The translations under genes were made by a program, and so were the position numbers. From Acetivibrionales bacterium (GTDB lineage: Bacteria; Bacillota; Clostridia; Acetivibrionales; JBMNNH01), in assembly GCA_050953835.1 (NCBI GenBank), contig JBMNNH010000018.1:3030-67029 (forward strand): 64,000 nucleotides of DNA, given 5' to 3'. Below are positions 29,769 to 62,950 of this stretch, one piece after another. Positions within the stretch are counted from its first letter, which is position 1. Every line of letters begins with the position of its first letter. Below the pieces are notes generated by a model that saw only the letters and a program-made list of their open reading frames with translations, did not search any database and was not told the origin of the DNA.

Positions 29769-32108
29769 TTACTTCTCCCTGTTCCCTTTACACCATTTTA
29801 AAACCAGTGATGCTAGAACCAGAAGCAAACCACCTCCTGCTATAATAGCCCCAATATAACCTGTGCCTGGAACAAGTCCTGCTGCAATAAACCCTCCATA
29901 CAGCATAGGACTGACGGCATCTCCCATTTTTTCACTCATGCTGAAAACGGAAATTGCTTTTCCTTCACCTAATTCTTTTGATTGTTTAGTTCCCAGATAG
30001 TAATTGGTAGATGCTGCTACAAGGCTTTTATCACATATACTTAAAATCATTATAGTAATTATCACTGATAGTACACTTCCGGTAGAAGCAAAAATGAAAA
30101 TTGCCCCGCCCATAATGAGCATTGAAATAACCATCGTAGGTTTTATGCCAAGATACCGGTTTGAATACTTTATTATTATCGAACTGAAAATAATACTGCA
30201 CAATGATGAAAGCATAAAAACCTGTCCTATAAAGCTTTGTGACAAACCATTTTCAGATGCAAACAAAGGGAAATAATAATCCAGGAATGTCCTTCCTAAT
30301 CTGGTTGGTATAATGATTGCAACAATAAAGAACAGTATTACAGGATTAAGAAGAAATCCAAAAATAGATACTCCATTACCCTTATTCCTTGCAGCCGACA
30401 CTTCTATTACAGCCTTTTTCTCTTCACTTAAGCTGTTTTTCCTTGAGACAAACATAACTACCATAATCCCAAGAACCAGTACAGCAGAAATCAGGAAAAC
30501 AGGCGGGAAACCAGCCCTATCAGAAATCATGGCTCCAATTACAACACCGCAGGTTGCTCCTGCACTGCCTCCAATATTCATACCTGATATACCTTCATTC
30601 CTTTTTTCAACCGAGTCAGCCATAAGTACCAAAGCCCTGATTGACATCAATAAAAGGCCGAATCCAATACCTGAAACTCCTCTGAACAAAGAAAACGGTA
30701 CTAGAGATTGTGCAAAACCTGAAAGCGCATTTCCCAGCAAAAGGAAGGCAGAGCCTATGCCAAATATTTTCTTCCAGCCGTATTTATCAATAAAAGCACC
30801 TGCAACTATTGTTGCAAGAACACCAAAAAGCATCTCTGCAGTATAGGGCATACCTATCATAATATTTTTAGGTATTCCCATAAGCGGCATATACAACTGT
30901 TTCGAAATTATTGGTATAAAAGACACATACATGCTGGTCGCAGTAAACACAACAAAGGATAATGCACGTATACTATATTTCCTTTCATCTTCTACCAGAT
31001 GTGGAGAGGCAAGCCTGTTTACAGAAAGTGATATAATACATGCTATTTCAAGCATAAACATAACAGATACTATCAGAGCTGTCAGTGTATCCAGCAAAAT
31101 TACCATAAGATAGCTTCTGATATTATCTTCTGAAATGTAGATGTCAAGCTTGACAGAATTTTGGCCAGCGTCCGGCTGAAGGGCGGATGAAATCATTTCT
31201 ACAGGCTTAGCGTTTTCTTGTTTTTTAGCTTCATGAGATATGGAGTTCCCATCAGTTATAGAAATAGAACTGATACCTTTCGTGGAACTAATTAAGTAAT
31301 CAAAATAATGTTCCATATCATTTAATCGGTCATATGTCACTCCCTTACTTATGACTGCCTCAATGTCATTTTTCACAGCATTGCTTACAATTTGGGCGTT
31401 TTCCCTTGCTACTGACCTGTACTCCTTGTTAAATTCAATATATGTCATCACACAGAAAAACAACTGTGCAAACAGCAATGTTATAATAAGGACTTTTCTT
31501 AATATCTTTGTATTAACCTTCGAATCCTTTATTAACGATCCCTTGCTTGTATAAATGACAAGTATCAGGAGTGCAGCAATAGAAACCAGTCCAAGGTAAA
31601 TAAGCATCCTCAACATACCAGAAGCAATCCTTCCGGTAACATTCTGTGAATCTATTATTATATCAAAAAAGCCAATTGTATCCTCTTGTTTGTCATGTAG
31701 CGGAAGAATTACATGATATTTGTCTTCACTCATGAATATCTGTTCGCTACTGCCGCTCTCTTTACTGAAGCCTTCAATAAAACCTGTATCAATATTATCT
31801 TCCGTATTTGTTGAGTACAGAAGGTTTTTATCTTTATTAAACAGATGTATATCATTAATAGACTGAGAAAGCCCCTTGATTTTGTGCAAAACGTCTTGAA
31901 TGCCATAGAACTTTTCAAGGTCCTTTCCGTACCTCACTGCATACTCAATGTAACGTACACCCTGGCTGCCGGCTATAGTATAAGTTTGGAGCAATGATTC
32001 CTCAAGATTGTTCCTGAATTTCGACAAATTATATATGCCAGTAAAACCCAGCGAAACAAGTATTAATACCAACGAATAAATAAATATTTTAGTTTTTATC
32101 TTTTTCAT
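29769..32108 (-). CDS. Fusion protein: N-terminal 4-TM/two-ectodomain sensor-like module plus C-terminal MFS permease
   Basis: ATG at 32108 lies 6 nt after AAGGTGGA. The N-terminal roughly 350 aa are paralogous to ORF 33305..34363. The C-terminal roughly 420 aa show 12 TM segments and MFS-like loops (GAFIDKYGWKK). Confidence 0.65.
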   Translation of the reverse strand: MKKIKTKIFIYSLVLILVSLGFTGIYNLSKFRNNLEESLLQTYTIAGSQGVRYIEYAVRYGKDLEKFYGIQDVLHKIKGLSQSINDIHLFNKDKNLLYSTNTEDNIDTGFIEGFSKESGSSEQIFMSEDKYHVILPLHDKQEDTIGFFDIIIDSQNVTGRIASGMLRMLIYLGLVSIAALLILVIYTSKGSLIKDSKVNTKILRKVLIITLLFAQLFFCVMTYIEFNKEYRSVARENAQIVSNAVKNDIEAVISKGVTYDRLNDMEHYFDYLISSTKGISSISITDGNSISHEAKKQENAKPVEMISSALQPDAGQNSVKLDIYISEDNIRSYLMVILLDTLTALIVSVMFMLEIACIISLSVNRLASPHLVEDERKYSIRALSFVVFTATSMYVSFIPIISKQLYMPLMGIPKNIMIGMPYTAEMLFGVLATIVAGAFIDKYGWKKIFGIGSAFLLLGNALSGFAQSLVPFSLFRGVSGIGFGLLLMSIRALVLMADSVEKRNEGISGMNIGGSAGATCGVVIGAMISDRAGFPPVFLISAVLVLGIMVVMFVSRKNSLSEEKKAVIEVSAARNKGNGVSIFGFLLNPVILFFIVAIIIPTRLGRTFLDYYFPLFASENGLSQSFIGQVFMLSSLCSIIFSSIIIKYSNRYLGIKPTMVISMLIMGGAIFIFASTGSVLSVIITIMILSICDKSLVAASTNYYLGTKQSKELGEGKAISVFSMSEKMGDAVSPMLYGGFIAAGLVPGTGYIGAIIAGGGLLLVLASLVLKWCKGNREK

Positions 32109-32147
32109 GTCCATTCCACCTTTATGCATCTCGTAATAATATAAGGC

Positions 32148-33308
32148 TTACTCTATCTCAAGGTATATTTTGTCTGCAACAAGAAGCAAATCGAAAGATA
32201 CAGGATAATTAATCCTGTCTGCAACACCAAGATTAATATCTATCCTTGGTGTAGAAACAAATTCCTGAACAAGATTACCAGGTTTTTCCCCCTTAAGCAC
32301 CTGAGCAATCCTTACTGCTCCAAACTGTCCTATTTCCTCAAAACTTGTAACATTAATACTCATTAAGGCGCCTTTAGCTACCTCCTGTCCTCCAAGCTGT
32401 GAAAAAACAGGTACTCTCTTTTCATAGAAGGGCTCAAGCAATTCCTTAAGCCATTCTGCGTTAATCTCCGCAACCGTTATGTAAAAAGCGTCTATTTCGT
32501 CCGAAATCTCATCATATGCACGGGCAAGTTCTTCCTTATACCTATCAATATCACTGCTGTCTTTCGGCATATCAACATATTTAATAACAGTTTCAAACCC
32601 ATATTCCTCTGATAGGTCATTAATATTATTCACCGGTGTAAAAGCCCTGGCAATATCACTGTCTTCCATTACTATGCCAAGTTTTTTAAAGTTGAAAATA
32701 TCATAGAAAACCCTTAACTGTCTTTCAAACCTTGCCGGATCGGTATGGGCCCATATGTTTTCCTTATTGGAGTATTCATATGTTTCTGATATTCCTGCTA
32801 AAACAGCATCAGTAACAGAAAAAATCATGGAATTAACACTGTGAGCAGTATCTGCAATCATGTTTCCGGCATCAGTACCCAAAACAATAACCAGATCCAC
32901 CTCATTACTTGACAGTCTTGAAACAAGCTGTTCCTTTTGCTCATCATCAATATAGGCCAGGCTGTAGTGAAAATCGGGAACAAACTCCAAATAGTCACTC
33001 ACATCATTTGTGCTTAAATAATCCCACATTGTTTTGGTATCCAACTGGCCTTCTTCATAGGGTACACCATCAATTCCTTTAAGCCACCTTATATCCTCAA
33101 GGCCTTTAAGTATATAATAAAATGATGGAGGATAGTTTACAAATTCATCACTTTCAATATAGCCGATTTTATACTTTCTTCCGTTTATTACCTGTGGTGA
33201 CAAATCATCATCAGAATCCCTTTCTGAATAAGCTGCCGCAGGCAACAACATTATCACCAAAGCAAGCACAAAGATTATAAAGAACTTTACACGTCTTCTA
33301 GCAATCAT
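32148..33308 (-). CDS. Secreted solute-binding protein (ABC_sub_bind/BMP-like family)
   Basis: Signal peptide, then a periplasmic-binding fold pattern ending KGALMSINVTSFEEIGQFGAVRIAQVLKGEKPGNL...INLGVADRINYPVSFDLLLVADKIY. No cognate ABC permease or ATPase is nearby. Confidence 0.6.
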   Translation of the reverse strand: MIARRRVKFFIIFVLALVIMLLPAAAYSERDSDDDLSPQVINGRKYKIGYIESDEFVNYPPSFYYILKGLEDIRWLKGIDGVPYEEGQLDTKTMWDYLSTNDVSDYLEFVPDFHYSLAYIDDEQKEQLVSRLSSNEVDLVIVLGTDAGNMIADTAHSVNSMIFSVTDAVLAGISETYEYSNKENIWAHTDPARFERQLRVFYDIFNFKKLGIVMEDSDIARAFTPVNNINDLSEEYGFETVIKYVDMPKDSSDIDRYKEELARAYDEISDEIDAFYITVAEINAEWLKELLEPFYEKRVPVFSQLGGQEVAKGALMSINVTSFEEIGQFGAVRIAQVLKGEKPGNLVQEFVSTPRIDINLGVADRINYPVSFDLLLVADKIYLEIE

Positions 33309-34363
33309 ACTTCTTTCCCCCTCCCGGATTGTCCGTTTTCAGTTTGTAAATATTTTTTGTCTATTATGCTAAACAGCTTTATAATTAGTACCTGCAGCAA
33401 TACACATATTGCAATAATGAATGCTGCACTACCTATTATTTTTTTTGCCCTATCATCTATATAAGCCTGAGACATAACTGCCTGTACTTCATTTTGCTGG
33501 TTTATATATAGATTCCTTATTTCTGGTACAGTACTGCTTATCTCTTCAAGCCAGCCACTAATGTCATGAATCCTGTCAATAGTGACTCCCTTATGAAGAA
33601 CCTTATTTATATCCATTTGGATAATAGAGCAAAGCCACTCACCTATTTTTTCAATTGAATAAAACAGAGAATCCCTTGTAATATACAATAGATAAGCGTT
33701 AAAAACTCCTAGTATAAAAATCGCAATAATGCAGAGTGCTAATGTAAAAATGAAGAAACTCCTCTTTTTATTATGTTCAAGCCTTATTCTTGTTGAGACA
33801 AAAATAATTATTATCAAGCCGCCTAATTGAAAAAGTATAAGCTGTATCCCATATTCCTTCTCATATAATGATACTTCATCGTTAAGCACATGATTTTCAA
33901 GGCTTATTACCATTACAGCAGCAAGATTTTCTTTCGCATCCAGTATAGGAACCGATATATAGTAAAGGCCTCCATCTTCAAAATAAGGTATTTCCTCATT
34001 GGCTGCATTGTTCAATAGTATACTCAGATTTGTGTTGTTATTTCTGTTGCTGTCATAAAGTGAATATAGGGTTTGTCCATTTTTCTGCATAATATGAATA
34101 TTATCTATTTCAGGTGCTGAATCACTAACCTGCCTTAAAATGCTGTCCATGTTATAAAAGTTTTGAATACTCTTACCGTATTTCAAGGCATATTCAATTT
34201 GCAGCACACCCTGTCGTGCTGCAAGCTTATAACCCCTGATCATTGCATTAATATGGCTTTCCCTGTACATCCTCTGGTTTATGCTGTATGAAAGAAACAG
34301 CCCGATGCAGATTACAATACTTAACAGTATAATAATATATGTCTTAAATTCCCTGCTGTTCAT
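33305..34363 (-). CDS. Stand-alone 4-TM/two-ectodomain sensor-like membrane protein
   Basis: Paralog of the N-terminus of the MFS fusion (RQGVLQIEYALKYGKSIQNFYNMDSILRQV versus SQGVRYIEYAVRYGKDLEKFYGIQDVLHKI). ATG at 34363 follows AGGAGG. ATGA overlap with the SBP gene. Confidence 0.6.
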   Translation of the reverse strand: MNSREFKTYIIILLSIVICIGLFLSYSINQRMYRESHINAMIRGYKLAARQGVLQIEYALKYGKSIQNFYNMDSILRQVSDSAPEIDNIHIMQKNGQTLYSLYDSNRNNNTNLSILLNNAANEEIPYFEDGGLYYISVPILDAKENLAAVMVISLENHVLNDEVSLYEKEYGIQLILFQLGGLIIIIFVSTRIRLEHNKKRSFFIFTLALCIIAIFILGVFNAYLLYITRDSLFYSIEKIGEWLCSIIQMDINKVLHKGVTIDRIHDISGWLEEISSTVPEIRNLYINQQNEVQAVMSQAYIDDRAKKIIGSAAFIIAICVLLQVLIIKLFSIIDKKYLQTENGQSGRGKEV

Positions 34364-34412
34364 ATCCCCCTCCTTGAATAAGTCTTGTACAGCCTGCCCA
34401 TGCAACAGCCTT

Positions 34413-34799
34413 TCAAGGCACTTGTATAGTAGCCTGTCCTGGATTGACTATCTGAATTATTCCACCATACATACATGTAAGCTTAGAAGATGAGTTAAGG
34501 GCCGGCTGTCCGGCAATAAGAACAGTAGGCGACCCAGGAACCCATGGTGAAGCAATATTAGGAACACAAGGCATGGGAGTCAGAACCCCCAACGCAGCAG
34601 CAGTCGCTGACTGCACAGCAGGATTACCCATACTGGTACACATAGCAAAGGGCATAACATTCGCCATTGGTTTATTGTCCATAATATTGGCCAAAGGTAG
34701 TGAAGTAATTGTTTTATTTTGAGGTGTTACGTTAAGTACCGATGGTGCTGTCCCAAAAGAACACATGCACTGTGCACCACCACAAACTGCCAATGCCAT
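34413..34799 (-). CDS. PAAR-like spike-tip protein (DUF4280-like)
   Basis: CGGAQCMCSFGTAPSVLNV...NVMPFAMCTSMGNP...PMPCVPNIASPWVPGSPTVLIAGQPAL...LTCMYGGIIQIVNPGQ matches the DUF4280 cysteine pattern. Confidence 0.85.
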   Translation of the reverse strand: MALAVCGGAQCMCSFGTAPSVLNVTPQNKTITSLPLANIMDNKPMANVMPFAMCTSMGNPAVQSATAAALGVLTPMPCVPNIASPWVPGSPTVLIAGQPALNSSSKLTCMYGGIIQIVNPGQATIQVP

Positions 34800-34859
34800 A
34801 AAAAGACCTCCGTTTTCTGTAATTATGTTTGTCAGTATTTATACCATGTAAAATATGAT

Positions 34860-35642
34860 TTAAAACTTAATAATGCCTGTATTATTATCAGTACCCAACT
34901 CCAGTGTGATGGATTCGGAATGTAGTACTTTGCCGGATACTCTTATTATTATCAAAGCCTCCCGGTCATCTTTATCAATGTCATGAATCCTTGCATGGAA
35001 TGCCCCATTACCGTCTATATATGCTTTAACTGCACTCTTTAACATCTCTCCTCTTTTATGAGTGTAAGAAAGCTGATGTTCAAAGGCATAAATATCATTA
35101 TCATAAGGCCCGCTTATTATTCTGCATAATTCACTATTCACATCATCCTTATCCTTAATTAAAAACATCCTTCCAGCTAAATCCTTTTTTCCTGTAGTAT
35201 AAAGCTTGACGCGTGTACTGCCTTTCTTTACAGATTCCTGTGCAATCTTTATTTTCTCCAGGTTTCTGCTGTATACCAGCAGTACATCTGTTTGATCAAA
35301 AGGCTTTTTCGATGAATCTAATTTACCATGGACTAGAACCAAATTACTCGAACCTGGATAAAGCATTCCTGGATTCAGGGTTACAGGTAAAACCGGATTT
35401 AACGGGTCAATGTCGGAAGTATTTACTGTAATTCTATCTGATTGGTAAACATCTGACACAATATCGAAATCATATGTATCATCTGGTAAATTACATACAA
35501 CGGTATAACCATCATTCTTATGTATAGTATCAACTGTAACACCGTTTACATATAACTTAACAAGGTTTTTGTTTACAGGCTTTCCTGTAATTGCATCCAT
35601 TATCCTAAATACTATTGATACTTTTTTCTTAATTGTGGTCAT
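34860..35642 (-). CDS. Carboxypeptidase-regulatory-like beta-sandwich protein (CIS-associated, function unknown)
   Basis: The N-terminal VSIVFRIMDAITGKPV...YTVVCNLPDDTYDFDIVSDVYQS resembles the CarboxypepD_reg fold. ATGA overlap (35639-35642) with the cap gene. Confidence 0.45.
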   Translation of the reverse strand: MTTIKKKVSIVFRIMDAITGKPVNKNLVKLYVNGVTVDTIHKNDGYTVVCNLPDDTYDFDIVSDVYQSDRITVNTSDIDPLNPVLPVTLNPGMLYPGSSNLVLVHGKLDSSKKPFDQTDVLLVYSRNLEKIKIAQESVKKGSTRVKLYTTGKKDLAGRMFLIKDKDDVNSELCRIISGPYDNDIYAFEHQLSYTHKRGEMLKSAVKAYIDGNGAFHARIHDIDKDDREALIIIRVSGKVLHSESITLELGTDNNTGIIKF

Positions 35643-36226
35643 GTTCTCTCTCCTTCATAAACATCCAGTGAAAAATCAGCCTCTGTGACTCTCTTAACTT
35701 CTCGAGTTTTTCTGGAATTCAACAGCACAGGTTCTACAATATATCCAACTGAAAGCTTATATGGTATATTCGGAAAGGCCCATATCCGCTGAAGCTCTTC
35801 ATAAGTAAGTTTATTGAAGGTAATTTGTATTCCTTCCCCGCTATCACGCAGTGTGCCCTCTAGATTTTCCGGTGTAATGACTGCATTGTCATGCAATATC
35901 TGTATTGCACGTCCTAATATCATGCTTTCATCTGCATTTCTAGAATATACTCCTGTTTTTGAATGTGATGTAAGTAAGTAATACAATTTTAGAGATAAGG
36001 GTGGGTATCTGAGTCTGTTCACATTCTCATTTATCATTGAGTTCTGACGATAATCACCGTTCTCTTCAATATGATATAGATAAAGTGTAAGCTGAAAATC
36101 CCCTGGATCATTTGGAGAGCACAAGCCGATCATCTCTGGTTTGTCAATAGGCTCGGGTATCATATTCTTCTGCAGAAGCCTTATTAAAGAGGTACCAACG
36201 TCAGTTATTACTGTATATTCCCCCAT
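35639..36226 (-). CDS. Tail terminator/cap protein, Afp16/Pvc16-like (DUF4255-like)
   Basis: VGTSLIRLLQKNM...FQLTLYLYHIEENG...YPPLSLKLYYLLTSHS...ESMILGRAIQILHDN is the DUF4255 pattern. Confidence 0.85.
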   Translation of the reverse strand: MGEYTVITDVGTSLIRLLQKNMIPEPIDKPEMIGLCSPNDPGDFQLTLYLYHIEENGDYRQNSMINENVNRLRYPPLSLKLYYLLTSHSKTGVYSRNADESMILGRAIQILHDNAVITPENLEGTLRDSGEGIQITFNKLTYEELQRIWAFPNIPYKLSVGYIVEPVLLNSRKTREVKRVTEADFSLDVYEGERT

Positions 36227-36227
36227 G

Positions 36228-39101
36228 TTAATCCTCCCTATTATTAAAAATCAGTTTATTATATTTCGTGTAGTACTCATAACCGTATCCTGTTATATCT
36301 TCAAATAAGAAAGCCGGGATATATATATGTCCATTTATTCCAAGTATATCTTGCTCCACATCCTTTTTATTGCCGTTAATAAAGATTTCTCTGGTGTGAG
36401 GTATTATTTTTACTTCCATACCGTTATAATTTATAACAGCTTTTCTCTCAGTTCCTACCCATACTACACTGCCTCCCAATCCTGTAAAGGCATCCCTGAT
36501 AGGAATATACGGTGTGCCCTGTGCCATAATAATTGGGTTCAAAAACTTTATATTACTGTCTGTAAAAATAGCTTCCCCTGCTTTAAAAGTACTGTATTTA
36601 TAACTTTCTGTTATCATTTCAGCCTTTTGATTTAGGCTTTTAATTTCCTCCTCAGTATATATACTGCTTTCCTTTTGGACTAACTGAAGAAGATTTTGGT
36701 AAATAAATGATTCAAGTGTTTCTGTTTCTATATCAACGCCTTGATTCATTCCTTCAATAGCAAGCTTCATTCTGGAAAAATAATCACTCTTTTCAGCAAC
36801 AAGAAGTGCATCAGCAGCTGCTCTGAAGCTCCTGATCAATGCCTGTACACCTGCCTTGTCTGTGCTGCCCGTGCTTAAAAAGCTGTTCCTGTATATACTT
36901 TGCATGCCCCTGGCTTCATCTGCATTATTCAGGGCAGAATAGTGCTTTGAAACATAATCCTCCATTTTGCTGCTGCCAGGAGAATATTCAATCAATAATT
37001 GCAAAATGGAAGCATTTTGCCTTTCTTCCATGCTCATTTTCATACTTTCAGCCGCAAGAGACACACTGCCTATCTGTTTTAGGATTCCAGCAGCAGAATC
37101 ACTGTCGCCGTTCTCTGAAAAGGTTTTATACAAAGCTTGTAAAGCATCTGAGATTTTATCAATGACACCATCGCTGTTAACAAATGACTTGTATTCCTCG
37201 TCAAGGGAGTTATAAGTGTCAAGCAGGTCTTTAACTGAAAACTCCAACTTACCTATTATATCTGAACCCGGTGTGTTGATTTCATCGAGAACTCTATACG
37301 CTCGCTCCTTGAAATCATTTATAAGGTTTTTGTCTTTATCACTAAGCAGATCTAGAAGTCCGGATATCATAATGTCTTTTAAGCCTATTTCGTTTTCCAG
37401 TTCCTTTGCAAGGCTGCTGTTTCCTTCCATAACAGCCTTGTCAAGTGAATTCTGCAGCTGTCTTTTCTCAGCATCAAGTTTATTTAAATCGTCCAATATA
37501 TTATCATTGTTATTAGATAAATCTTCAAGCACCCTGCCTATTTGCTCCTTTAATGAAGAGGCATGAGCAATGTTTCCGGTCTCAACCGCACTCATATACT
37601 CTTCTTTAAGCGCAGCAAGTTGATTCTCCAAACCCGCTTTTGCTTTCGAGGAACTGGATAGTTGTTCATTCATGGATGCTTTTATGCTCTTAATTTCATT
37701 ATCCAACAAGTTAAGAAAATCACCAAGAACCTTTAATGCAGGCTGGTTGTTATTAATGTCCTCCTGGCTGCCTGCGTTCAAATCAACTATTATAGCTGCT
37801 ATGTACCCTTTAATTCTTTCAAGGGCAGAAATTTTGCTTTTATTGTCTTCAAGCCTTTTAATGGTTTCAGTCTTAATAAATTCTACATCTTTTACCCTGG
37901 ATTCAAGCTGTTTTGAATTGTCTTCAATAATCTTATCCAATACAGCTTTGGATTCACCCGCAGCTTTTGCAGCCTTAAACTCACTATTATTGCTTACAAA
38001 CGCTGTACTTTTTAACCTGTCAAGAGCTCTGTCCAGGACTCTGTTCAGAACTATCAGTTCTTCCCCACTGCTTTTGATAATACTATTTTTTATATTGTTA
38101 ATATGTAATATATCACTCAAAACAGCATCCGCACCAGAAAAGTCCTGAGTATCAATTTTCCCAAGCAAACTCTTTTGTAATATACCTTTCTCTTCGCCGA
38201 GGACATCTGTTGATTGTCCTGCAAGGCTATTGATAAGATTGTTCTGAGTATCTATTAGTGCTGCAGATGAATTTGACAGTGGTTCCAAAATATCTGTATG
38301 TGCTTTATTACTTGCTTTATCAATTGCTGATTTAACCCTATCTGCAATCAACTGTACAACAAATATTTTTTGCTCGGTCAGTATATTGTTTTCCAGCTCC
38401 AAGACTTCAGCTATGTAAAGTTCCCTTTTATCAGTATGTGTCCTGTTGATATAGTCCTTATAACTTTGAATTCGAGTAAGTATGCTCTCACTATCCGAAT
38501 ATCCCTTCTGACCTTTAACCGAGGCAAGAATCGGATCAATAATTCCAAGCTTCTCTCTTATTTCTTTCCTTTCAGAACTGTCACTGCTTTTATTCAGCTT
38601 CTTTTCCTGGGACTTTCTCTCATTTGTAATGCTTTCAAGTTCTTTTTCGAGAAATTTCATCCCTTCGGGTAGATTATTCTCTGGTTCGTTTATCTGGCGT
38701 GCATCCACAGCTTTACCGGTAGAAAGGTCAATTATTTCTCCCGGTTTCTTTGCCCAGTGGGTAAGAGGAATGGAATCAATTTCTAGATTTGATACTATTT
38801 TCCCTTTTTCTGTCAAGATCTCATCCACAGTACCTGTACCGGTAATATCAACCCACTCGCCTTTTGCAAATTCTGACTTGTAATAAACCTTTTTCTGTCC
38901 GCTGTTTTCTGCGCTTTTTTCTGCCAATGACACAGTTTCACTATCAAGGGCTGACAGATGTATAAGAAATGTGCCAATAACGAGTGTCTGATTGGGAACG
39001 TCCTTTGCCAAAGGCCTTGTATCAGCACATGCTACACCAAATGGAAGAAGTGCTGTAATAACAAATATAATAAGCATCACAAAAGCATTTACTCTCTTCA
39101 T
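36228..39101 (-). CDS. Secreted 957-aa coiled-coil protein with C-terminal copper-amine-oxidase-N-terminal-like domain
   Basis: Sec signal MKRVNAFVMLIIFVITALLPFGVACA, about 750 aa of heptad-rich sequence, then C-terminal GTPYIPIRDAFTGLGGSVVWVGTERKAVINYNG...INGHIYIPAFLFEDITG. Its stop is 1 nt from the cap gene start. Confidence 0.7.
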   Translation of the reverse strand: MKRVNAFVMLIIFVITALLPFGVACADTRPLAKDVPNQTLVIGTFLIHLSALDSETVSLAEKSAENSGQKKVYYKSEFAKGEWVDITGTGTVDEILTEKGKIVSNLEIDSIPLTHWAKKPGEIIDLSTGKAVDARQINEPENNLPEGMKFLEKELESITNERKSQEKKLNKSSDSSERKEIREKLGIIDPILASVKGQKGYSDSESILTRIQSYKDYINRTHTDKRELYIAEVLELENNILTEQKIFVVQLIADRVKSAIDKASNKAHTDILEPLSNSSAALIDTQNNLINSLAGQSTDVLGEEKGILQKSLLGKIDTQDFSGADAVLSDILHINNIKNSIIKSSGEELIVLNRVLDRALDRLKSTAFVSNNSEFKAAKAAGESKAVLDKIIEDNSKQLESRVKDVEFIKTETIKRLEDNKSKISALERIKGYIAAIIVDLNAGSQEDINNNQPALKVLGDFLNLLDNEIKSIKASMNEQLSSSSKAKAGLENQLAALKEEYMSAVETGNIAHASSLKEQIGRVLEDLSNNNDNILDDLNKLDAEKRQLQNSLDKAVMEGNSSLAKELENEIGLKDIMISGLLDLLSDKDKNLINDFKERAYRVLDEINTPGSDIIGKLEFSVKDLLDTYNSLDEEYKSFVNSDGVIDKISDALQALYKTFSENGDSDSAAGILKQIGSVSLAAESMKMSMEERQNASILQLLIEYSPGSSKMEDYVSKHYSALNNADEARGMQSIYRNSFLSTGSTDKAGVQALIRSFRAAADALLVAEKSDYFSRMKLAIEGMNQGVDIETETLESFIYQNLLQLVQKESSIYTEEEIKSLNQKAEMITESYKYSTFKAGEAIFTDSNIKFLNPIIMAQGTPYIPIRDAFTGLGGSVVWVGTERKAVINYNGMEVKIIPHTREIFINGNKKDVEQDILGINGHIYIPAFLFEDITGYGYEYYTKYNKLIFNNRED

Positions 39102-39126: not shown

Positions 39127-40475
39127 GTTCTGTTAACTTAATAATAAAATGAGACCTGAAACGCCTCTGGTATAATGGAATCGTCAAAAAACACATTATC
39201 TCCCAGAAAGGAGCGTTCAAGTCTCATGACTATTATACCATCTAACGTAGTATGTCCAAGGTGTTTTTCAAAAGTTCTTAACCGTTTTGGTAAGGACAAG
39301 GAGGGTTACCAAAAATATCAGTGTCAACATTGTAAGCGTCAGTTCGCTCCAGATAACCCTACTTCCAATTCACAATCGAGAAAAAGAAAATATCCTGATT
39401 GCCCGATTTGCGGTAAAGCAACTTTTCTTCACCATGACTATACTTATTACTCAAACTTCCGGTGTGGTGATAAAAAATGTAACCATTCCTTTAGAGTTCC
39501 GAAGCTTATTAACGTGGAACCACCTTCTTCTGAATTGAACCCACAAAGCTTTTCTTTTAAAGGAATGCGTCATTCTCTCCACATTGTTCTTTGTGCCCTT
39601 AATTACTACTTTTGCGGTAATTCAACCACCCGCAAGGTTTCCCAGATCTTATACATGGTTCATCAGATTAAAGTCTCACATGTTACCATCTCGAAATGGA
39701 TTAAGCGCTTTGCCCCGGTATTTAAAAAGATCGCCACAGATCGGCTTTTGGGGATTAAGCTCTGCGATTCGGATGAATGGCATTTCGATGAAACCTATAT
39801 CAAAATTTCTGGGAAAGATTATTATCTCTGGCTTGCCATTGATTCCGAAACCAGATTAGTTCTTGATTTTCATCTTTCTCCTAACCGTGATTCATCCGCT
39901 GCTCATACCCTTTTATCAAGCTGTAAAAGAAATTTCGGACAACCTCAATCCGCTGTAATTTCTGATCGATATTATGCCTATCAACAGCCTGCTTCTCTGT
40001 TCTTCCCAGAGGCCAAACATATTTGTGTGGAAGACTTTGATGATTTAATCAACAACAATGTTATAGAGGCTTTTAACGGGCAATTCAAAGCGTGGTACAA
40101 ACCTAAAAGAGGCTTTAATTCATTCGAATCTGCCAACCGGCTCATTGCTACATACATTTTCTTTTACAACTTCGTTCGTCCTCATTTGAGTCTCAATGGT
40201 TTAACACCGGCTCAAGTTGCCGGAGTTAAATACTCAAAACGCGAACGGCTCTTCTGGTTATTGGTAGCTTGAGTAATATTCAGATTTCAAGGTTCATTCC
40301 GTCCTGCGCTGTGCCAGGACTATTTGTGCTACCTTAATTAGAACTTTTAAGGGTTGCACATCACTTTTTTTCATGTTACTTTGTTCTTAGTCGTTTCCAT
40401 TAGTAGGCTTTTTTCTTTTTAAGCTCTACCAAAGGTCTTTCAGGTCTCATTTCTTCATACTTAGTTAACAGAACC
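39127..40475 (+). mobile_element. IS6-family insertion sequence (about 1.35 kb) with imperfect terminal inverted repeats and target-site duplication
   Basis: The IRs share GTTCTGTTAACT (12/12) and AAATGAGACCTGAAA (15/15), separated by a divergent 10-12 nt. The element is flanked by direct repeats (C)AATACCAT at 39118-39126 and 40476-40484. Confidence 0.85.
39175..40272 (+). CDS. IS6-family DDE transposase with N-terminal zinc-finger region
   Basis: CPRC...CQHCKRQF and CPICGK...CGDKKC zinc-ribbon motifs, then DDE-region motifs FDETYIKISGKDYYLWLAIDSETR, ISDRYYAY and NNNVIEAFNGQFK typical of IS6/IS26-type enzymes. The real start may be ATG 39226, because a TGnTATAAT box at 39168-39176 overlaps the first ATG. 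Confidence 0.8.
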   Translation: MESSKNTLSPRKERSSLMTIIPSNVVCPRCFSKVLNRFGKDKEGYQKYQCQHCKRQFAPDNPTSNSQSRKRKYPDCPICGKATFLHHDYTYYSNFRCGDKKCNHSFRVPKLINVEPPSSELNPQSFSFKGMRHSLHIVLCALNYYFCGNSTTRKVSQILYMVHQIKVSHVTISKWIKRFAPVFKKIATDRLLGIKLCDSDEWHFDETYIKISGKDYYLWLAIDSETRLVLDFHLSPNRDSSAAHTLLSSCKRNFGQPQSAVISDRYYAYQQPASLFFPEAKHICVEDFDDLINNNVIEAFNGQFKAWYKPKRGFNSFESANRLIATYIFFYNFVRPHLSLNGLTPAQVAGVKYSKRERLFWLLVA

Positions 40476-40496: not shown

Positions 40497-42545
40497 TCAG
40501 TTTCCGATAACAATATCAAGTGTCCCGCTTCCATCCTGTGCATCCTTCAGATATGCCTCGGCTACCTTCTCTTCCTGTTTGTACAGTAACACCTTTAATT
40601 GGCTGTAGTCATTAATAACCACGTCAAGATGTTCAACCCTTTGGTTCACAGGCAATATTTCACTGATACTCTCATTTTTCCATAGCACCTGGTAGTGGGT
40701 TGCGCCAAGAGCGGTGTCTACATGTATATACAGGCTTGATTTATATGTACCTGCTATCTTTTCCGCTTTCCATGAGCCGGTAAATTTATTGGTTTCTGAA
40801 GGTTTATGGACAAGCAAAGTGCCTCCTGTTTCAAACCCGTCAAGCTCAGCTTCACCAACAATCTGCCCGTCTTTATAAAGCTTGACACGCAAAAGCGCGG
40901 AATCATTAAACATAACAGGAAGATGTACAATTTCCTTGTTAATTTCAGTTCTTTCTCCAACCCTTGAACCATCGTAGGTATATAGTTCATAGTGCGTTGC
41001 TTCTACACCAACAGGTAGTTTTTTTATACCAAATGCGACCTTATAGTCATCAAGCCTTATATTGGTATACCATTCTCCGGGCAGTCCATCTTCTTCTGTT
41101 TCTGTTTCGGGGAGCTGGTTTTGAATAAATGATTCCCCGTTTTCAAGCGCCTGTATTGTTATACTGTATTGTCCAATGTATTTTTCCAAAGCTCCCGACG
41201 ATTCATATGAAAGAATATAAATCTGTTGGTTCAAAGAAATAAGGTTGGAAATCACGCTATCCATAGCACTTCTTAAGGATGCCTTCATACTGTCGAGTTC
41301 CTCAAAAGTAATCAGTCCTAACTTGTTCTGAATAACTGCATCCTTATACTCTTGAAGCAATTCTTCCGATTTGGCCTTTGATTCTTCAAAAGCTATCTTG
41401 GCAGATACCAGGTTCAGATACAAGTTTTCTACGTTTTCTAACTGTTGTGTAGTAACATTTTCAACATTAATCTGCTCTTTTTCTTTTTCAGCTACAGAAA
41501 GAGGAAGGGCAAACTTTTCATTATCAAAATAGCGTATTCCGTCAAATTCCCTCTGGAACCACTCCTTCGGGATAGGTATAACAAAGAATATAAACGGTAT
41601 ATAATAATAACCACCATACTTATCCTCAATACTGTCAAGCATTCTCTCATACTTTGTCATAAGGTTGTCGAAATCAACCCTGCCTGAAGTCCTTAAGGCT
41701 TGTTCAACTGGAGATGCCATTGAGCCGAATTTCTTTTTAACATCCATCAATATGGTTTCGGTTTTAAGAGTTGCTAGGGCGAGTTTCCTTTTTGCCTGGT
41801 AAATATCAATGTCATCCTTTAAGGTATTATCAAGGATTTCTTTTAAGATACCCCTGTCTATATTTATGTTAATCAGCTTTTCTTCAAAAACATAGCCCGT
41901 ACTGACATCCATTCCTATTAGCTTTCCAAGGCTGTTTTTCTCCTTCTCATAGGCCATTACGGTTTGCTGGAGGTTCTTCGTAAATTCCTTAACTTCATTC
42001 TCTTTTGCTTTAAATGCTTCCTTTGTGGCCTGTCCAGTCCTAAACTTCCTTTCAAGCATTTCAAGGGCTTTCTCTGATTCTTCAAGTTTTATTGCTGCAT
42101 TGCGTTCATTAATGCCTTCTGTTATGACAGCAAGATACTGCAGCCTTATATCCATATTTAATTTTCTTCTTGCTTCAACAATCTGCCTGTCAATATCAAT
42201 TATTTTTGCTGTAAGTTCAGGAATCTTAAAGACAGTTTGAATCTCCTTGGGCTGGCCATGTGTCTCAGGCAGCTTTATATTAAACGGAAGTGAAAACCTG
42301 ACCGTACTTTCTTTCTTTCTGAGATCTCTTAGTGCTTCCCTAGCTTGATAAAGTTCAATACGTGTTTTAAACTTTTCCATTTCAAGCTCATATATTTCAT
42401 TACTGTTGCTAGTACCAATGCGCACCGCTTCTTCAAGGGTTAAAAGCTGTTCTCCTGCAGCAGCAGAATAGGTACTAGTACCGAAAAAAACCGCCAACGC
42501 AGTAAGGAAAGAAAACAGCCTGATAATATTACTCTCTCTTCTCAT
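40497..42545 (-). CDS. TolC/OEP-like secreted coiled-coil protein with two C-terminal beta-sandwich repeats
   Basis: Signal peptide, then LTLEEAVRIGTSNSNEIYELEMEK... (an OEP-like opening) and long helical repeats. The last 192 aa are two roughly 95-aa repeats, each containing GATHY. Confidence 0.45.
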   Translation of the reverse strand: MRRESNIIRLFSFLTALAVFFGTSTYSAAAGEQLLTLEEAVRIGTSNSNEIYELEMEKFKTRIELYQAREALRDLRKKESTVRFSLPFNIKLPETHGQPKEIQTVFKIPELTAKIIDIDRQIVEARRKLNMDIRLQYLAVITEGINERNAAIKLEESEKALEMLERKFRTGQATKEAFKAKENEVKEFTKNLQQTVMAYEKEKNSLGKLIGMDVSTGYVFEEKLININIDRGILKEILDNTLKDDIDIYQAKRKLALATLKTETILMDVKKKFGSMASPVEQALRTSGRVDFDNLMTKYERMLDSIEDKYGGYYYIPFIFFVIPIPKEWFQREFDGIRYFDNEKFALPLSVAEKEKEQINVENVTTQQLENVENLYLNLVSAKIAFEESKAKSEELLQEYKDAVIQNKLGLITFEELDSMKASLRSAMDSVISNLISLNQQIYILSYESSGALEKYIGQYSITIQALENGESFIQNQLPETETEEDGLPGEWYTNIRLDDYKVAFGIKKLPVGVEATHYELYTYDGSRVGERTEINKEIVHLPVMFNDSALLRVKLYKDGQIVGEAELDGFETGGTLLVHKPSETNKFTGSWKAEKIAGTYKSSLYIHVDTALGATHYQVLWKNESISEILPVNQRVEHLDVVINDYSQLKVLLYKQEEKVAEAYLKDAQDGSGTLDIVIGN

Positions 42546-44080
42546 CAGCTCTGCACCTCTCCTATAGTTAATACTACAAACTCCTCACTATCTACCATAT
42601 AGTGAAATCTGTACTCATAGCCATCAATAATGTATAGCATATATTTCAGTAAATCCCCCTCAATTATTTCCGTATGACCTGACGCCTGTGCTGCGGATGC
42701 CAGTGCTTGTTCTGAAGAAATTATACCTTTGCCGGACGGCTCGCCCATTGCATCCTTCATATTACTGAGATTCAGATTCTTATTCTTTAATACTACCAAC
42801 CCGGGGTTTTCACTCTCCCATATGTATGCTTTCTGCACAACAGCAGGATTTTCCATGTCTGCGTAGTTTATTAAAAAGGCGCATCCTGTTTCTTCCAGTA
42901 CTAATAGAAAATCGTATTCAAACATAACAAACTCAGATTTCCCAGTGAAATATGTGACAATTTCTTTTGTTTCTTTTCCAATCATATCTGCAAAAGGTAT
43001 TTCGTCCTGGAAAAAAAAGCCTTGGTATATTGGCGTTTCAAACTGTGAAAACAACCTTCCTTCCCCGTGCTTCATACCTGAAAACATTTCACCTTCATAT
43101 ACTTTTATCCCGTTTTGATATATTTTCCCCATGCCATTTGGCAGTCCATCCTTAAAATCCCCCTCATACCAGCCGGAATTTTTCTCATAGTATAATTTCC
43201 CCTTGCCATTATAAGCATTGTTTTGAAATTCTCCTTCATATATGATGTTTCCGTAGGAATCATATAAAATGCCCTGTCCGTTATAGCTGCCGTTTACAAA
43301 TGAACCTGAATACTTTAATAGGCCATTTTCATGGTATTCCATCCCCTGTCCATTTTTCTCACCTGCAGAGAATATACCTTTGAAAGACACACTGCCCTTT
43401 TCATTGTACATAATACCATTACCGTCAAATTGTGAGGCGGTAAAGCCTCCTTTATATAGTATGGCGTTGCTATCCGGATAAAAATAAGTGCCTGTTCCCT
43501 CCATCATGCCTCCGGAAAAATCCCCCTCATATACTTTTCTTCCTTTTTCATCGTACAGTTTCCCATATCCTTCATATAAATCATTCTGAAAATAGCCTTC
43601 ATAAATTAAGGTGCCTGTTTCAGCATATACTTTTCCATATCCAGTCTTAAGGCCGTTTTCCAGTTTGCCCTCATAAACCACACTGTCATTTTCTCTTTCA
43701 AGTAAATTTACCTTTCCATTGTAAGTGGCAATTCTCTCGTTATCCTGATAAAACACCGCAGTAAAGTATTTGCTTATTAACCACGGTCGTACGTACATAA
43801 AGAAAAGGAATATCAAAACAATTATAGCCACAGGTATAATAATAAAAAGTGACTTTGCCACGTATTTATGTCTGAACTCTATATAATCATTTATATTATC
43901 AGGCTTTACCTTCACTTTTTTCTGGATACTGCCTTTGGTTTTCATTACCAGTTTTCTTGCTTTTGAGCGAACGTTCAGGTTTTTCCTGATAGTTCTCGTT
44001 AATCTCCTAATGGGCAAAAGCAAAGCACTTTTAACCAGCCTGCCTATATACACTATAAAATTAAACAATCTCATTATCAT
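42545..44080 (-). CDS. Membrane-anchored MORN-repeat protein
   Basis: Basic N-terminus, one TM, then about 10 tandem YEG-x-(F/W)-x-x-G-x-x-x-G-x-G repeats (for example YEGYFQNDLYEGYGKLY). 1-nt stop/start overlap with the TolC-like gene. Confidence 0.8.
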   Translation of the reverse strand: MIMRLFNFIVYIGRLVKSALLLPIRRLTRTIRKNLNVRSKARKLVMKTKGSIQKKVKVKPDNINDYIEFRHKYVAKSLFIIIPVAIIVLIFLFFMYVRPWLISKYFTAVFYQDNERIATYNGKVNLLERENDSVVYEGKLENGLKTGYGKVYAETGTLIYEGYFQNDLYEGYGKLYDEKGRKVYEGDFSGGMMEGTGTYFYPDSNAILYKGGFTASQFDGNGIMYNEKGSVSFKGIFSAGEKNGQGMEYHENGLLKYSGSFVNGSYNGQGILYDSYGNIIYEGEFQNNAYNGKGKLYYEKNSGWYEGDFKDGLPNGMGKIYQNGIKVYEGEMFSGMKHGEGRLFSQFETPIYQGFFFQDEIPFADMIGKETKEIVTYFTGKSEFVMFEYDFLLVLEETGCAFLINYADMENPAVVQKAYIWESENPGLVVLKNKNLNLSNMKDAMGEPSGKGIISSEQALASAAQASGHTEIIEGDLLKYMLYIIDGYEYRFHYMVDSEEFVVLTIGEVQS

Positions 44081-47059: not shown

Positions 47060-48211
47060 ATGGATAAGAAAATTATTGGTAATAAGTACCAGGTGCTAAG
47101 AGTGCTTTTTGATAATGAGAATTACTATGCTGCAATATGCCGTGATATTTCAACACCTGATGAAAAGCATAGTGTCATATTGAATGTATACCGAAGCAAA
47201 CCATCAATTTTGAAGGCTGCCCCTGTTTTTACGAAAGTTAACAGCGATATATGCCATGACTTTAAGGAATTCTTTGTTGAATCTCCGTATGTAATTTCAG
47301 TTTTTAAACATTATGATTATACTTCCCTTGAATGTTTTTTATCAGAGAATGACATTTCTCTCACCGAACGCCTTGCACTTTGCTCTTCATTCCTGCTTGA
47401 AGCAATACGTAATGATAATATACCACTGTTGTTAAAGTTGGATATCCTGCAAGCTAAGCATATAGTAGTTGACAGCGAAAGGAAAATTCATATTAATTTT
47501 TTTGCAAAGCTGGATAATAATGATGAACCGGAAATAATCGAAAAAAAAGTGATAAAAAACATATCTTCTATTATAGAATTAATACTTGGTAACAGGAAGA
47601 AACTACCTGAGGAGCTTTTGAATTTTCTTTCGGAACTTGAATCAGATAAATACAACATGATAAGCAGCATATTCTCTGAGTTTAATACTGTTTCTGAAGC
47701 TATTATAGCTAAGACAGAGGATAGCAGCGACCAAAATCTACAGAAGAGAGCCCGGACTGCACTGGGAAAGGCAGTTAAAAAACAAGTAAAAAAGCCAGCT
47801 GCAATAATTGTTTTAAGGGTTGTAGTTATTGTTCTTTTAGCAGGTATTATAATAGCGGGTGGTTATTATGCATACAAACATATCTTCACAGGCAAACCCG
47901 TGGCATCTTTTTCTGAAGAAATCAGTGAAACCAATGTTATTGATAATGCAATGCAGGTCAAGCTCTCGCCTAAGACTCCTGCAGTAAGCGAATCTGTGCC
48001 TGAACCTAGCCCTGTGACAGTAGAGCCTGAGAAAAACAATGAAGTTGTGCATATAGTAAAAATTGATGATAACCTTTTTGATATAGCGGAAGCATATTAT
48101 GGAAATGGTGATCTATATACATTGATTAAAGAAAGAAATAAACTTGAATCAAATATTATTTACGTAGGCATGGAATTGATCATACCTGCCTACAACCAAA
48201 TGGAACAGTAA
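47060..48211 (+). CDS. Bitopic protein: degenerate protein-kinase-like N-domain, TM, C-terminal LysM domain
   Basis: The N-terminus has a kinase-like layout, but the VAIK Lys, HRD and DFG equivalents read VILNV, LDILQAKHIVV and NFF. TM segment AAIIVLRVVVIVLLAGIIIAGGYYAY. LysM is HIVKIDDNLFDIAEAYYGNGDLYTLIKERNKLESNIIYVGMELIIP. Confidence 0.5.
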   Translation: MDKKIIGNKYQVLRVLFDNENYYAAICRDISTPDEKHSVILNVYRSKPSILKAAPVFTKVNSDICHDFKEFFVESPYVISVFKHYDYTSLECFLSENDISLTERLALCSSFLLEAIRNDNIPLLLKLDILQAKHIVVDSERKIHINFFAKLDNNDEPEIIEKKVIKNISSIIELILGNRKKLPEELLNFLSELESDKYNMISSIFSEFNTVSEAIIAKTEDSSDQNLQKRARTALGKAVKKQVKKPAAIIVLRVVVIVLLAGIIIAGGYYAYKHIFTGKPVASFSEEISETNVIDNAMQVKLSPKTPAVSESVPEPSPVTVEPEKNNEVVHIVKIDDNLFDIAEAYYGNGDLYTLIKERNKLESNIIYVGMELIIPAYNQMEQ

Positions 48212-50059: not shown

Positions 50060-50067
50060 AGCCCCCC

Positions 50068-51246: not shown

Positions 51247-51267
51247 CTCTATTCAAATATGTTGTGT

Positions 51268-53421: not shown

Positions 53422-53425
53422 CCGT

Positions 53426-56400: not shown

Positions 56401-56443
56401 AAATGTCTTCAATGGTACGTTTATCAATTTTCGGTACGTACAT
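53426..56443 (-). CDS. Large baseplate wedge protein (baseplate J/gp6-like, Afp11-like)
   Basis: YYTPEWRFNLESPDPGTALFIIFAEMFQETIDRFNKTP N-terminal signature. About 1005 aa. ATG at 56443 lies 5 nt after GGAGG. Confidence 0.7.
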   Translation of the reverse strand: MYVPKIDKRTIEDIYKQLSSMLPYYTPEWRFNLESPDPGTALFIIFAEMFQETIDRFNKTPLKNYLAYLNMLDIDMKPVVPSIGYVCFNTSSGAVNKVFIPSGTKLFSDSEYTDSDRIIFETTQNFFVTPAKIKAIYNVDPVKDRIVNCYSQDGLGSEYPCNITLFDTEKGTNLQEHAFYLSENSVLSIKSPAVISVKLENRKNPHIVDRYLEKLSDPELVEWCYHTNDGWKPFEKIEKDKDLIVLFKSNNDILTSHQHDEGDIYISCRAKNILRLKEILADHIFIASSSDQKVQKGIQPDLIYSDDIPVENENGYCFGAQFSMYNCMYVKSDEVFIKKGAHVSIELDLGFIEKDFQSEIPQIDLYKNYKLIMDKNKFAKPEKLNITIQRILMEYWNGIGWVRIETESKIDNVFNGKTGIKHITFKCPDDISPVLVNSIDGYWIRFRIVDIENNFYVNGVYLSPWLKNMVLNYGYKGIFPAANKIININNSSEGNPIDVSKGVEQPVKMFSPLDDKKSTVYLCFDKKPYGIPINIYFQVLSQSESSVKELVWYAMSKYRGMKEWVEIRVDDKTCGFAKSGIVSIESGTDMIPAEYFGVEGYWFKIERNEFQQELLPMIDSIHMNAVKIVQKESHKDERHMLYANDLTSSVTLTYSPVIEEEVWVNEVGHINDDQINSLLQGNPSKISIVRDDEERVAEVWVLWDGVENFYDSGSNDRHYMIDRSKGIIYFGDGNKGKKVPEQEEENILVNYSSGGGSIGNLPEGSINNLLSPIAYIDSVSNIKPTCGGCDRQELNDVALLGPAVLRHRGRAVTLLDYQKLVKSNFIDARKVKCIPNVNNSGEVDYGCVTVVVMCDSYWDYHYNIDLCSEIRSFLLDRAFCISASNDKIFVVPPQLLELNVDCELVIEDMEAAASVEEALAGIVSQYLDPLRGADGKGWDIGEIPKPAHFYSTIKKIPGIKYIGRINLDASFIKNGIRKYIALDKPVYMPFAVPVNGMHKFRLRTD

Positions 56444-56478
56444 TTTTACCTCCAAATACACTTTTTTTATAAAGTACA

Positions 56479-56907: not shown

Positions 56908-56943
56908 ATTATCACCTCAATAAACACTAAATAATAATCAAAA

Positions 56944-58796: not shown

Positions 58797-58817
58797 ACCA
58801 CCTTTAATATGGTGTTA

Positions 58818-59459: not shown

Positions 59460-59492
59460 AGTAATCCCCCTTTAAGCAAATTTTAGCAATTA

Positions 59493-62483: not shown

Positions 62484-62498
62484 ACACCTTCCACCACT

Positions 62499-62933: not shown

Positions 62934-62950
62934 TTATATTTAACGCCCCT

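Follow-up and report, generated by a model that had tools for sequence, protein, structure and literature searches.

A conserved module of predicted envelope genes, ending in the probably exported protein p957, in contractile injection system clusters of Clostridia

The window analysed here is a stretch of 64,000 nucleotides from an Acetivibrionales bacterium (assembly GCA_050953835.1, contig JBMNNH010000018.1, positions 3,030 to 67,029 of the forward strand), which carries a contractile injection system (CIS) cluster. The gene p957 (36228..39101, minus strand) is an open reading frame (ORF) of 957 residues, predicted to encode an exported envelope protein with a signal peptide, an N-domain, a helical scaffold and a stalk domain. 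Judged from gene content and gene order, a conserved, predicted envelope module of four to five genes in the CIS clusters of monoderm Clostridia ends with p957. The module consists of a p383-family gene, p922 (lost in one sub-lineage), p511, p682 and p957, and is located between cis13 and the genes for cap, p260, DUF4280 and sheath. A preliminary description of the window had taken up, of this module, p957 alone, linking it to the cap and PAAR genes; the four genes between Cis13 and p957 (p383, p922, p511 and p682) and an insertion sequence (IS) were left out of it.

Distribution of the p957 family and its link to CIS clusters

An exhaustive phmmer search with p957 returned 408 cluster representatives at E<1e-3, including 222 at E<1e-10, which are mostly 750-1100 residues long. 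The N-domain is present in all of the 150 best family hits, near the N-terminus in 149, and the stalk domain was detected in 99 of the 150. A word-indexed search with full-length p957 retrieved only p957 itself, as low-complexity helices swamped the candidates, and the same kind of search with the N-domain profile yielded 13 fragments only. No relative of p957 was found in a scan of viral contigs. The protein is identical to an NCBI entry from a metagenome-assembled genome (MAG), which is annotated as a "stalk domain-containing protein".

Pattern-seeded retrieval with motifs of the p957 N-domain yielded 86 loci, six from genomes and 80 from metagenomes, and dereplication at 90% identity reduced them to 64 lineages. 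The hosts of the genome loci are Hungateiclostridiaceae, Anaerobacterium chartisolvens DSM 27016 (L007), Herbivorax sp. ANBcel31 (L008), one Bacillota MAG and two Lachnospiraceae MAGs. According to profile scans of all ORFs, the recurring gene order is Cis13, p383-like protein, HAMP protein (p922), MORN protein (p511), p682, p957, cap, p260, DUF4280, sheath position, tube and a protein of 120 residues. The sheath position in related loci is an unannotated gap of about 1.7 kb, and a Phage_sheath_1 gene was called there in L092 and L095. CIS core genes together with p682 and the MORN gene are carried by all 34 dereplicated loci that have at least 3 kb of sequence on either side. Six divergent members from the exhaustive list were used for a check independent of the motifs, and all five evaluable ones lie in CIS loci; P0028, P0029, P0126 and P0146 show the same gene order, P0092 is also placed within a CIS locus, and the contig of P0062 was too short. 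With 34 of 34 loci and five of five picks in CIS clusters, p957 is not a lineage-specific gene lacking a CIS link elsewhere, and the CIS association that had been proposed for it is therefore retained.

The gene p682 is located directly upstream of p957 in all 65 evaluable loci, four of which had been marked as exceptions solely through overlapping longest-ORF starts. With refined starts, p682 and p957 overlap by 4 nt in 24 of 82 loci, and the gap between them is at most 40 nt in 75 of the 82. The MORN protein was found in all 57 evaluable loci and the HAMP protein in 44 of 49; DUF4280 is encoded downstream of p957 in 51 of 57 evaluable loci, and p260 was detected in 45 of 57.

Moreover, P0092 (1221 residues, L093:10001-13666) is a natural fusion of p682 and p957 inside a CIS locus. 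Residues 50-618 correspond to p682 (E 6e-47), residues 673-767 to the N-domain of p957 (E 2e-15) and residues 1069-1210 to its stalk region (E 3e-12). Its upstream context comprises gp25, two large genes at the baseplate positions (one with a weak Baseplate_J match), Tail_P2_I, and a gene for 553 residues at the Cis13 position. By these alignments, the fusion is Rosetta-stone evidence that p682 and p957 act together. A paralogous relationship between the two proteins was also considered and rejected (hhalign probability 2%).

The cap gene lies directly 3' of the p957 homologues in most loci. In 11 loci (L016, L021, L023, L027, L034, L037, L038, L045, L047, L068 and L089), DUF4280 directly follows p957, with no cap gene between them. 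The cap gene is found beside the ATPase gene, upstream of cis13, in L037, L047 and L068, which are those with enough upstream sequence, and p260 accompanies the relocated cap gene beside the ATPase gene in L068. The HAMP gene is absent from seven of these 11 loci (L021, L023, L037, L038, L045, L047 and L068). Because cap sits elsewhere in this sub-lineage, p957 is not tied to it, and the specific link of p957 to the cap or PAAR-like genes claimed in the preliminary description has to be given up. The fixed neighbour is p682; on gene order, p682 and not cap is the constant partner of p957.

Proteins encoded by the module

The signal peptide of p957 occupies residues 1-26 (MKRVNAFVMLIIFVITALLPFGVACA, followed by DTRP...; 39024..39101, minus strand); signal peptides were called here by heuristic criteria. 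It starts with MKR, continues with a 16-residue hydrophobic core (V4-L19) and ends in P..G.ACA ahead of DT, which gives n-, h- and c-regions and an AXA site fitting the -3/-1 rule (A24-C25-A26, followed by D27). Confidence of the AlphaFold2 (AF2) model is low at residues 19-26. Across the family, a hydrophobic stretch precedes the N-domain in 140 of 149 members, K or R is present in the n-region of 137 of 144, and a small-residue -3/-1 site stands beside the domain start in 101 of 144. The clear Sec signal first reported for p957 is thus conserved family-wide, and the protein is very probably exported. The sole cysteine (C25) lies in a PROSITE-like lipobox, and lipoprotein anchoring was rejected, with a lipobox-like motif in only six of 144 members. 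In homologues the signal ends in FA or VKA before E; since no cysteine is conserved in the family, the signal is predicted to be of the signal peptidase I type rather than that of a lipoprotein.

Next to the signal peptide is the conserved N-domain (residues ~27-165; 38607..39023, minus strand), with the motif series RPxAxDIP..IIGTHxI..YYKSE..GxW.DIT..LTHWT..G.TIDL.TG and the invariant residues G43, Q69, S76 and W83. AF2 modelled it from a 40-sequence alignment as an alpha/beta domain, with a predicted local distance difference test score (pLDDT) of 81 and a core above 90. The helical scaffold comprises residues ~166-834 (36600..38606, minus strand); the full-length AF2 model (30-sequence alignment, pLDDT 84.6) resolves residues ~156-834 into ~27 helices of 15-48 residues with short loops between them. 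Its nearest folds by Foldseek are helical-repeat and solenoid proteins, namely designed helical-repeat proteins, importin and nucleoporins. A periodicity of 3.5 residues is moderate and limited to about residues 380-660. The preliminary description had envisaged ~750 residues of heptad-rich coiled coil and a filament-like protein; the model instead suggests a multi-helix scaffold, either a helical repeat or a bundle. Within this region, Y502 and A505 are near-invariant in an "ExYLxAxExGD" motif; a repeated "E.G[ND]...A" motif was discarded, being no commoner than in shuffled sequences.

The C-terminal stalk domain (Cu_amine_oxidN1, PF07833; residues ~844-954; 36240..36572, minus strand) was matched by Pfam at E 4.7e-13, with 49.5 bits against a cut-off of 24.2. 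According to Foldseek, its AF2 model superimposes on the N-terminal domain of E. coli amine oxidase with a root-mean-square deviation of 1.5 A over 72 residues, in agreement with the copper-amine-oxidase-N-like domain named earlier. Cu_amine_oxidN1 has been reported in the Gram-positive (Firmicute) surfaceome and in cell-wall hydrolases (PMC4137172). Since p957 combines a family-conserved signal peptide with a stalk domain typical of Firmicute surface proteins, a role in the envelope is suggested. No match of p957 to a transporter or adaptor family was found in Pfam or NCBIfam.

The partner gene p682 (40497..42545, minus strand) encodes a putatively secreted TolC/OEP-like protein with a signal-like N-terminus and two C-terminal beta-rich repeats, and homologues were found in L006-L097. 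The OEP family of Pfam matched 30 of 33 p682 homologues, with a best E of 4.6e-15. The copy in the window, taken alone, is sub-threshold for OEP (9 bits) and matches TIGR01845 at E 2e-4. When the p682 family profile was compared with PDB, both TolC helical repeats were matched (E 0.014-0.05).

The remaining three proteins of the module are predicted membrane proteins with sizeable cytoplasmic domains; two or three of them precede p682 and p957. The bitopic p511 (42545..44080, minus strand) has a basic N-terminus (residues 1-70), one transmembrane (TM) segment (TM-like residues 71-104) and MORN repeats (E 8e-19). The receptor-like p922 (44126..46894, minus strand) has four TM segments, a HAMP domain (E 7.6e-9) and a C-terminal region that is assigned to the class III cyclase-homology domains, because a full-length homologue (L093:18047-20806, alignment E 7e-71) carries both HAMP and Guanylate_cyc Pfam domains. 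Both metal-binding aspartates of the cyclase appear, by eye, to be replaced. A cNMP-binding/HEAT protein is encoded in L093 two genes downstream of the p922 homologue.

Finally, p383 (47060..48211, plus strand) is bitopic, with a conserved cytoplasmic N-domain of ~240 residues, a TM segment at 242-273 and a LysM tail (E 6e-7). Its gene is inverted in the window and co-directional with the module in relatives, and in 45 loci a homologue is located between cis13 and the HAMP gene. LysM was found in one of 26 p383 homologues, which is the window copy. The N-domain of p383 gave weak, non-significant but consistent matches to protein kinases (PAK1, MLCK and NEK1; E 0.2-0.7); assignment as a kinase was rejected at E~0.2 and kept as a lead.

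Gene junctions, the CIS block and surrounding genes

Gene spacing downstream of p957 was read directly from the sequence. At the p957/cap junction (36224..36238, minus strand), the stop codon TAA of p957 (36228-36230) is separated by 1 nt (36227) from the start codon ATG of the cap gene (36224-36226), whose Shine-Dalgarno sequence GGGAGGA (36232-36238) lies inside the 3' end of p957. The genes for cap (195 residues; 35639..36226, minus strand) and p260 (260 residues; 34860..35642, minus strand) share an ATGA overlap, and a 60-nt spacer precedes the gene for DUF4280 (128 residues; 34413..34799, minus strand), all as originally claimed. Across the whole co-directional gene string of the window, neighbouring genes typically overlap or lie 1 nt apart, and the gap from p957 to the cap gene spans -1 to 141 nt among homologous loci. 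Because such spacing is common and the gap is variable, the tight junction points to co-transcription only, and the special translational coupling of p957 with the cap gene, as first proposed, is not supported. No terminator-like site was predicted between p957 and DUF4280 on the coding strand. The closeness of p957 to the cap gene is operon layout, not physical partnership.

The cap protein, or tail terminator, was identified in its CIS cluster by Pvc16_N/DUF4255 (Pfam E 3.4e-33, 115.3 bits against a cut-off of 27). The gene previously named PAAR encodes a PAAR-like spike-tip protein that matches DUF4280 (Pfam E 4.2e-37, 127.5 bits against 26.3) and is below the cut-off for PAAR_motif itself (17.1 bits against 27). 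It also matches the NCBIfam model T6SS_IglG (E 7e-18), under that model's "exception" cut-off. DUF4280 proteins of related loci share 46-73% identity. The N-terminal ~80 residues of p260, encoded between cap and DUF4280, are weakly CarboxypepD_reg-like at a sub-threshold level (E 0.11, 13.4 bits against a cut-off of 32.3), short of the assignment given before; the best match among its homologues reached E 5e-5 and 23.9 bits (cut-off 32.3), with two to four of 33 matching at E<0.01. No relative of the p260 family was found by sequence search of PDB, and PDB sequence searches with cap and DUF4280 gave nothing useful. Overall, gene layout, cap, signal peptide and stalk domain of the preliminary description stand, its PAAR and CarboxypepD_reg assignments are weaker than stated, and its long coiled coil is not borne out.

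The complete CIS structural block is located at 48254..64000. It contains two gp19 tube genes, CIS_tube, a gp27-like YQBQ gene, a Phage_base_V spike gene, gp25, two Baseplate_J (Cis11) genes (51268-53421 and 53426-56479), Tail_P2_I, a CIS13-family gene, and an ORF of 996 residues at the tape-measure position with no significant Pfam match. The gene for the Cis13-family fibre/baseplate protein (48254..50059, minus strand; CIS13_fam E 2e-31 in the N-terminal part), syntenic in 52 loci, forms the upstream boundary of the module. An ATPase with WHD and AAA domains is encoded at 25711..27906. A conserved protein of ~120 residues (63133..63504, minus strand), with a weak DUF7575 zinc-ribbon-like match, always follows the tube gene and has homologues in 43 loci.

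According to a previous survey, subtype IIa is characterized by two Cis11 proteins, a split gp27/gp5 spike, divergent Cis12 and Cis13, and a PAAR-like gene (Chen et al. 2019, PMC6899500). The gene content of the window fits subtype IIa, an assignment made by gene content and sheath match. The sheath of the syntenic locus L010 is closest in PDB to 9EZM (E 1e-108), followed by 8BKY of Streptomyces CISSc (E 2e-95), and the closest solved relative of the window Cis11 is 9GTP of CISSc (E 3e-30). The entry 9EZM is the sheath of Halogeometricum borinquense, from a membrane-anchored haloarchaeal type VI secretion system (T6SS) of clade IIa (PMC11566945).

An IS6-family element (39127..40475, boundaries +/-1 nt, plus strand) is inserted in the spacer between p682 and p957, 23 nt upstream of the p957 start. 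It carries a DDE_Tnp_IS240 transposase ORF (39175..40272, Pfam) and is bounded by the inverted repeats GGTTCTGTTAAC, with a target duplication of 8-9 bp, (A)TGGTATTG. In contig L003 of the same species the element is missing, and p682 ends there 37 nt before p957. As read from these contigs, the insertion is recent, polymorphic because of its absence from L003, and splits the operon in the window genome.

A strong GC-rich, bidirectional terminator-like hairpin (48215-48236; 9-bp stem with 7 GC pairs) lies between the convergent cis13 and p383 genes and sets the baseplate operon of the window organism apart from its module/cap operon. After DUF4280, tightly packed genes on the minus strand (29769..34405) encode a 366-residue protein with four TM segments, an ABC_sub_bind lipoprotein-like protein, an MFS fusion of 786 residues, a GNAT protein and alanine racemase; on visual comparison, the 366-residue protein seems to be a paralogue of the N-terminal part of the MFS fusion. 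These genes were rejected as part of the conserved module, recurring in three to four related loci only (e.g., L022). Further along (19794..24581, minus strand), a YbjN/CesT-like protein of 299 residues and a 1288-residue protein without a Pfam match have the appearance of a chaperone and its effector. In L008, DUF4280 is directly followed by a YbjN-like gene and an ORF of 2225 residues (L008:15037-22998).

Role of the module and relation to known systems

On balance, we give an even chance to the reading that p957, p682 and the membrane proteins form a CIS-dedicated envelope complex, which would anchor, position or trigger the machine. Localisation, complex formation and this anchoring or triggering role are inferred from the sequence features, the family, the synteny and the fusion described above. 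In such a complex, p682 and p957 would come together on the outer side of the membrane, in the zone of the wall, with p957 as an elongated helical scaffold that its C-terminal stalk domain and its family-specific N-domain keep in place. The three membrane proteins would join p682 and p957 into one envelope complex, and the cytoplasmic domains of this complex would bring the cytoplasmic CIS to the membrane, position it there or trigger it. Export, the CIS link and an envelope partner of the CIS, all part of the earlier interpretation, are retained in this reading, whereas its cap/PAAR link and its filament are not.

Several points weigh against such a complex. A duct of the TolC type is much narrower than the tube of a CIS, so the module would not simply be a channel for that tube. 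No Pfam or NCBIfam match to TssJ, TssL or TssM was found among the 30 window proteins scanned, and Foldseek found no structural relative of the N-domain, neither in PDB (best E 3.1) nor in BFVD (best E 0.26). Loci were retrieved with seeds from p957 N-domain motifs, a procedure that very divergent members outside CIS could escape. By separating p957, cap, p260 and DUF4280 from the upstream part of the module, the IS may have impaired the CIS in the window genome. Finally, fibre genes (Cis13) are usually taken to indicate particles that are released and extracellular (PMC12923769), and the Clostridial clusters retain theirs, which fits a released particle.

A further-reaching proposal, which we hold only tentatively, is that monoderm Clostridia (Acetivibrionales, Oscillospirales and Lachnospiraceae, gut and rumen species included) operate a cell-anchored T6SS-like weapon whose baseplate is docked to a dedicated wall-spanning complex of the three membrane proteins, the TolC-like protein and the p957 scaffold. 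If true, it would be the first T6SS-type machine with a membrane/wall complex in Gram-positive bacteria, and its parts would be unrelated to TssJLM.

It seems to us unlikely that the module is purely sensory, controlling CIS production or firing with no docking, like TagQRST-PpkA of the Pseudomonas H1-T6SS. In that case, p957 and p682 would serve as scaffolds outside the cell that sense wall or contact cues and report them to p922 and the kinase-like bitopic protein. Such a role would fit the HAMP and cyclase-homology domains of p922, the cNMP-binding protein near its homologue in one locus, the weak kinase matches of the p383 N-domain (PAK1, E~0.2), and the receptor-like topologies of p922 and p383. 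However, the HAMP protein is missing from a whole sub-lineage that retains the p383-like protein, the MORN protein, p682 and p957; the kinase matches lack significance, and the metal-binding aspartates of the cyclase are apparently missing. About 1,600 residues of secreted scaffold would also be much for a sensor, and sensing overlaps with the envelope complex preferred here.

It is improbable, in our estimate, that the module serves for exit or release, by remodelling or opening the thick wall for finished extracellular CIS particles, or for the control of lysis. The Cis13 fibre genes suggest particles acting outside the cell, and the window p383 has a peptidoglycan-binding LysM domain. However, LysM is confined to one of 26 p383 homologues, neither the module proteins nor their homologues showed a domain of a hydrolase, holin or endolysin, and the nearest characterised relatives are not released particles. 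Still smaller credence is given to an independent envelope or efflux-like operon hitch-hiking in the CIS cluster. TolC-like proteins normally serve export systems, and the terminator at 48215-48236 transcriptionally parts the module and cap genes from the baseplate genes in the window; however, the position between core CIS genes is kept over the 64 dereplicated lineages (28-45% identity, several families), no ABC, RND or MFP transporter is conserved with the module, and among the evaluable loci the family was never encountered away from CIS clusters.

An extracellular coiled-coil filament partnering the cap and PAAR-like proteins, for which the 1-nt junction, the shared transcription and the lack of a predicted terminator before DUF4280 might speak, is very improbable and largely refuted by synteny, given the 11 loci without an intervening cap gene, the junctions of -1 to 141 nt, the multi-helix AF2 model, and the established CIS architecture, in which cap and spike tip, both cytoplasmic, occupy opposite ends of the particle. 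Equally hard to credit is a self-protection shield or surface receptor that spares or marks sister cells: the module is predicted to be extracellular, is large and strictly CIS-linked, and the nearest relative mediates contact-dependent antagonism (PMC11566945), but immunity is normally paired with individual effectors and varies with them, whereas the module is conserved among structural genes and the effector-like genes lie elsewhere.

CIS of Gram-positive bacteria may relate to the envelope in any of three ways: by release through lysis, by firing inside the cell or by anchored outward firing. The only characterised relatives, CISSc with CisA and the haloarchaeal T6SS, indicate one membrane adaptor each. 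The present module, strictly linked to CIS and with two large, probably exported proteins among its products, offers concrete candidates for the envelope interface and hints at how these machines could be attached to the cell surface or governed from there. p957 defines a new protein family with an N-domain lacking structural relatives in the two databases searched, and p682 is a TolC-like protein in organisms without an outer membrane. The module is widespread in gut, rumen and digester Clostridia, and its presence could become a marker from which to predict how uncharacterised CIS clusters act. With Anaerobacterium chartisolvens DSM 27016 and Herbivorax sp., carriers are available in culture for direct testing.

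Previous comparative work showed that lineage II subtypes each have two or three extra conserved genes without recognisable domains, whose role was uncharacterised (Chen et al. 2019, PMC6899500), and the module genes may be among these subtype-specific conserved genes. No description of the module was found in the literature on Clostridial or Bacillota CIS envelope components or on MORN or TolC in CIS, and the export signals, the TolC-likeness, the five-gene organisation and the fusion were not found described there.

Compared with TolC/OEP factors, the p682 family fits the OEP profile, and the p957 gene comes next much as an adaptor gene would. Unlike such factors, p682 belongs to hosts without an outer membrane, has two extra C-terminal beta-rich repeats, and is accompanied by no conserved inner-membrane transporter. 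In T6SS clusters, exported or lipid-anchored envelope proteins are encoded that dock the baseplate or switch assembly on, so a Sec-exported protein in a contractile-system cluster is not in itself anomalous. The present module differs from TssJLM and TagQRST-PpkA in its monoderm hosts and in its proteins, which are unrelated in sequence. No PpkA or Fha domains were detected among the window proteins scanned.

In Streptomyces coelicolor, CISSc depends on the bitopic membrane protein CisA for firing, and CisA does not belong to the particle (PMC12237407). The host is likewise Gram-positive, and p383 and p511 share the CisA architecture of a cytoplasmic N-domain, one TM segment and an outer C-domain, a likeness judged by architecture only. 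However, CisA is one protein only, whose outer domain is substrate-binding-like, and no secreted TolC-like or helical-scaffold proteins have been described with it. CISSc also fires inside the cell and causes cell death, whereas the Clostridial clusters keep fibre genes.

The haloarchaeal T6SS-like CIS resembles the Clostridial systems in its single-membrane hosts, its Cis11/12/13-type baseplate and a cluster-linked conserved membrane protein that is thought to link baseplate and membrane. Its T6SS mode correlates with a conserved protein of six TM segments, and its Cis11 is reported to be nearest to Bacillota homologues (PMC11566945). The haloarchaeal CIS is anchored to the cytoplasmic membrane, whereas such anchoring is a proposal for the Clostridial systems. 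Its putative anchor, Hbor_38620, is one protein with six TM segments and a cytoplasmic domain of ~150 residues, in contrast to the three membrane proteins and two large, predicted secreted proteins of the Clostridia. In thick-walled Clostridia, the complex proposed here would take the place that CisA has in Streptomyces, Hbor_38620 in haloarchaea, or the membrane complex in T6SS.

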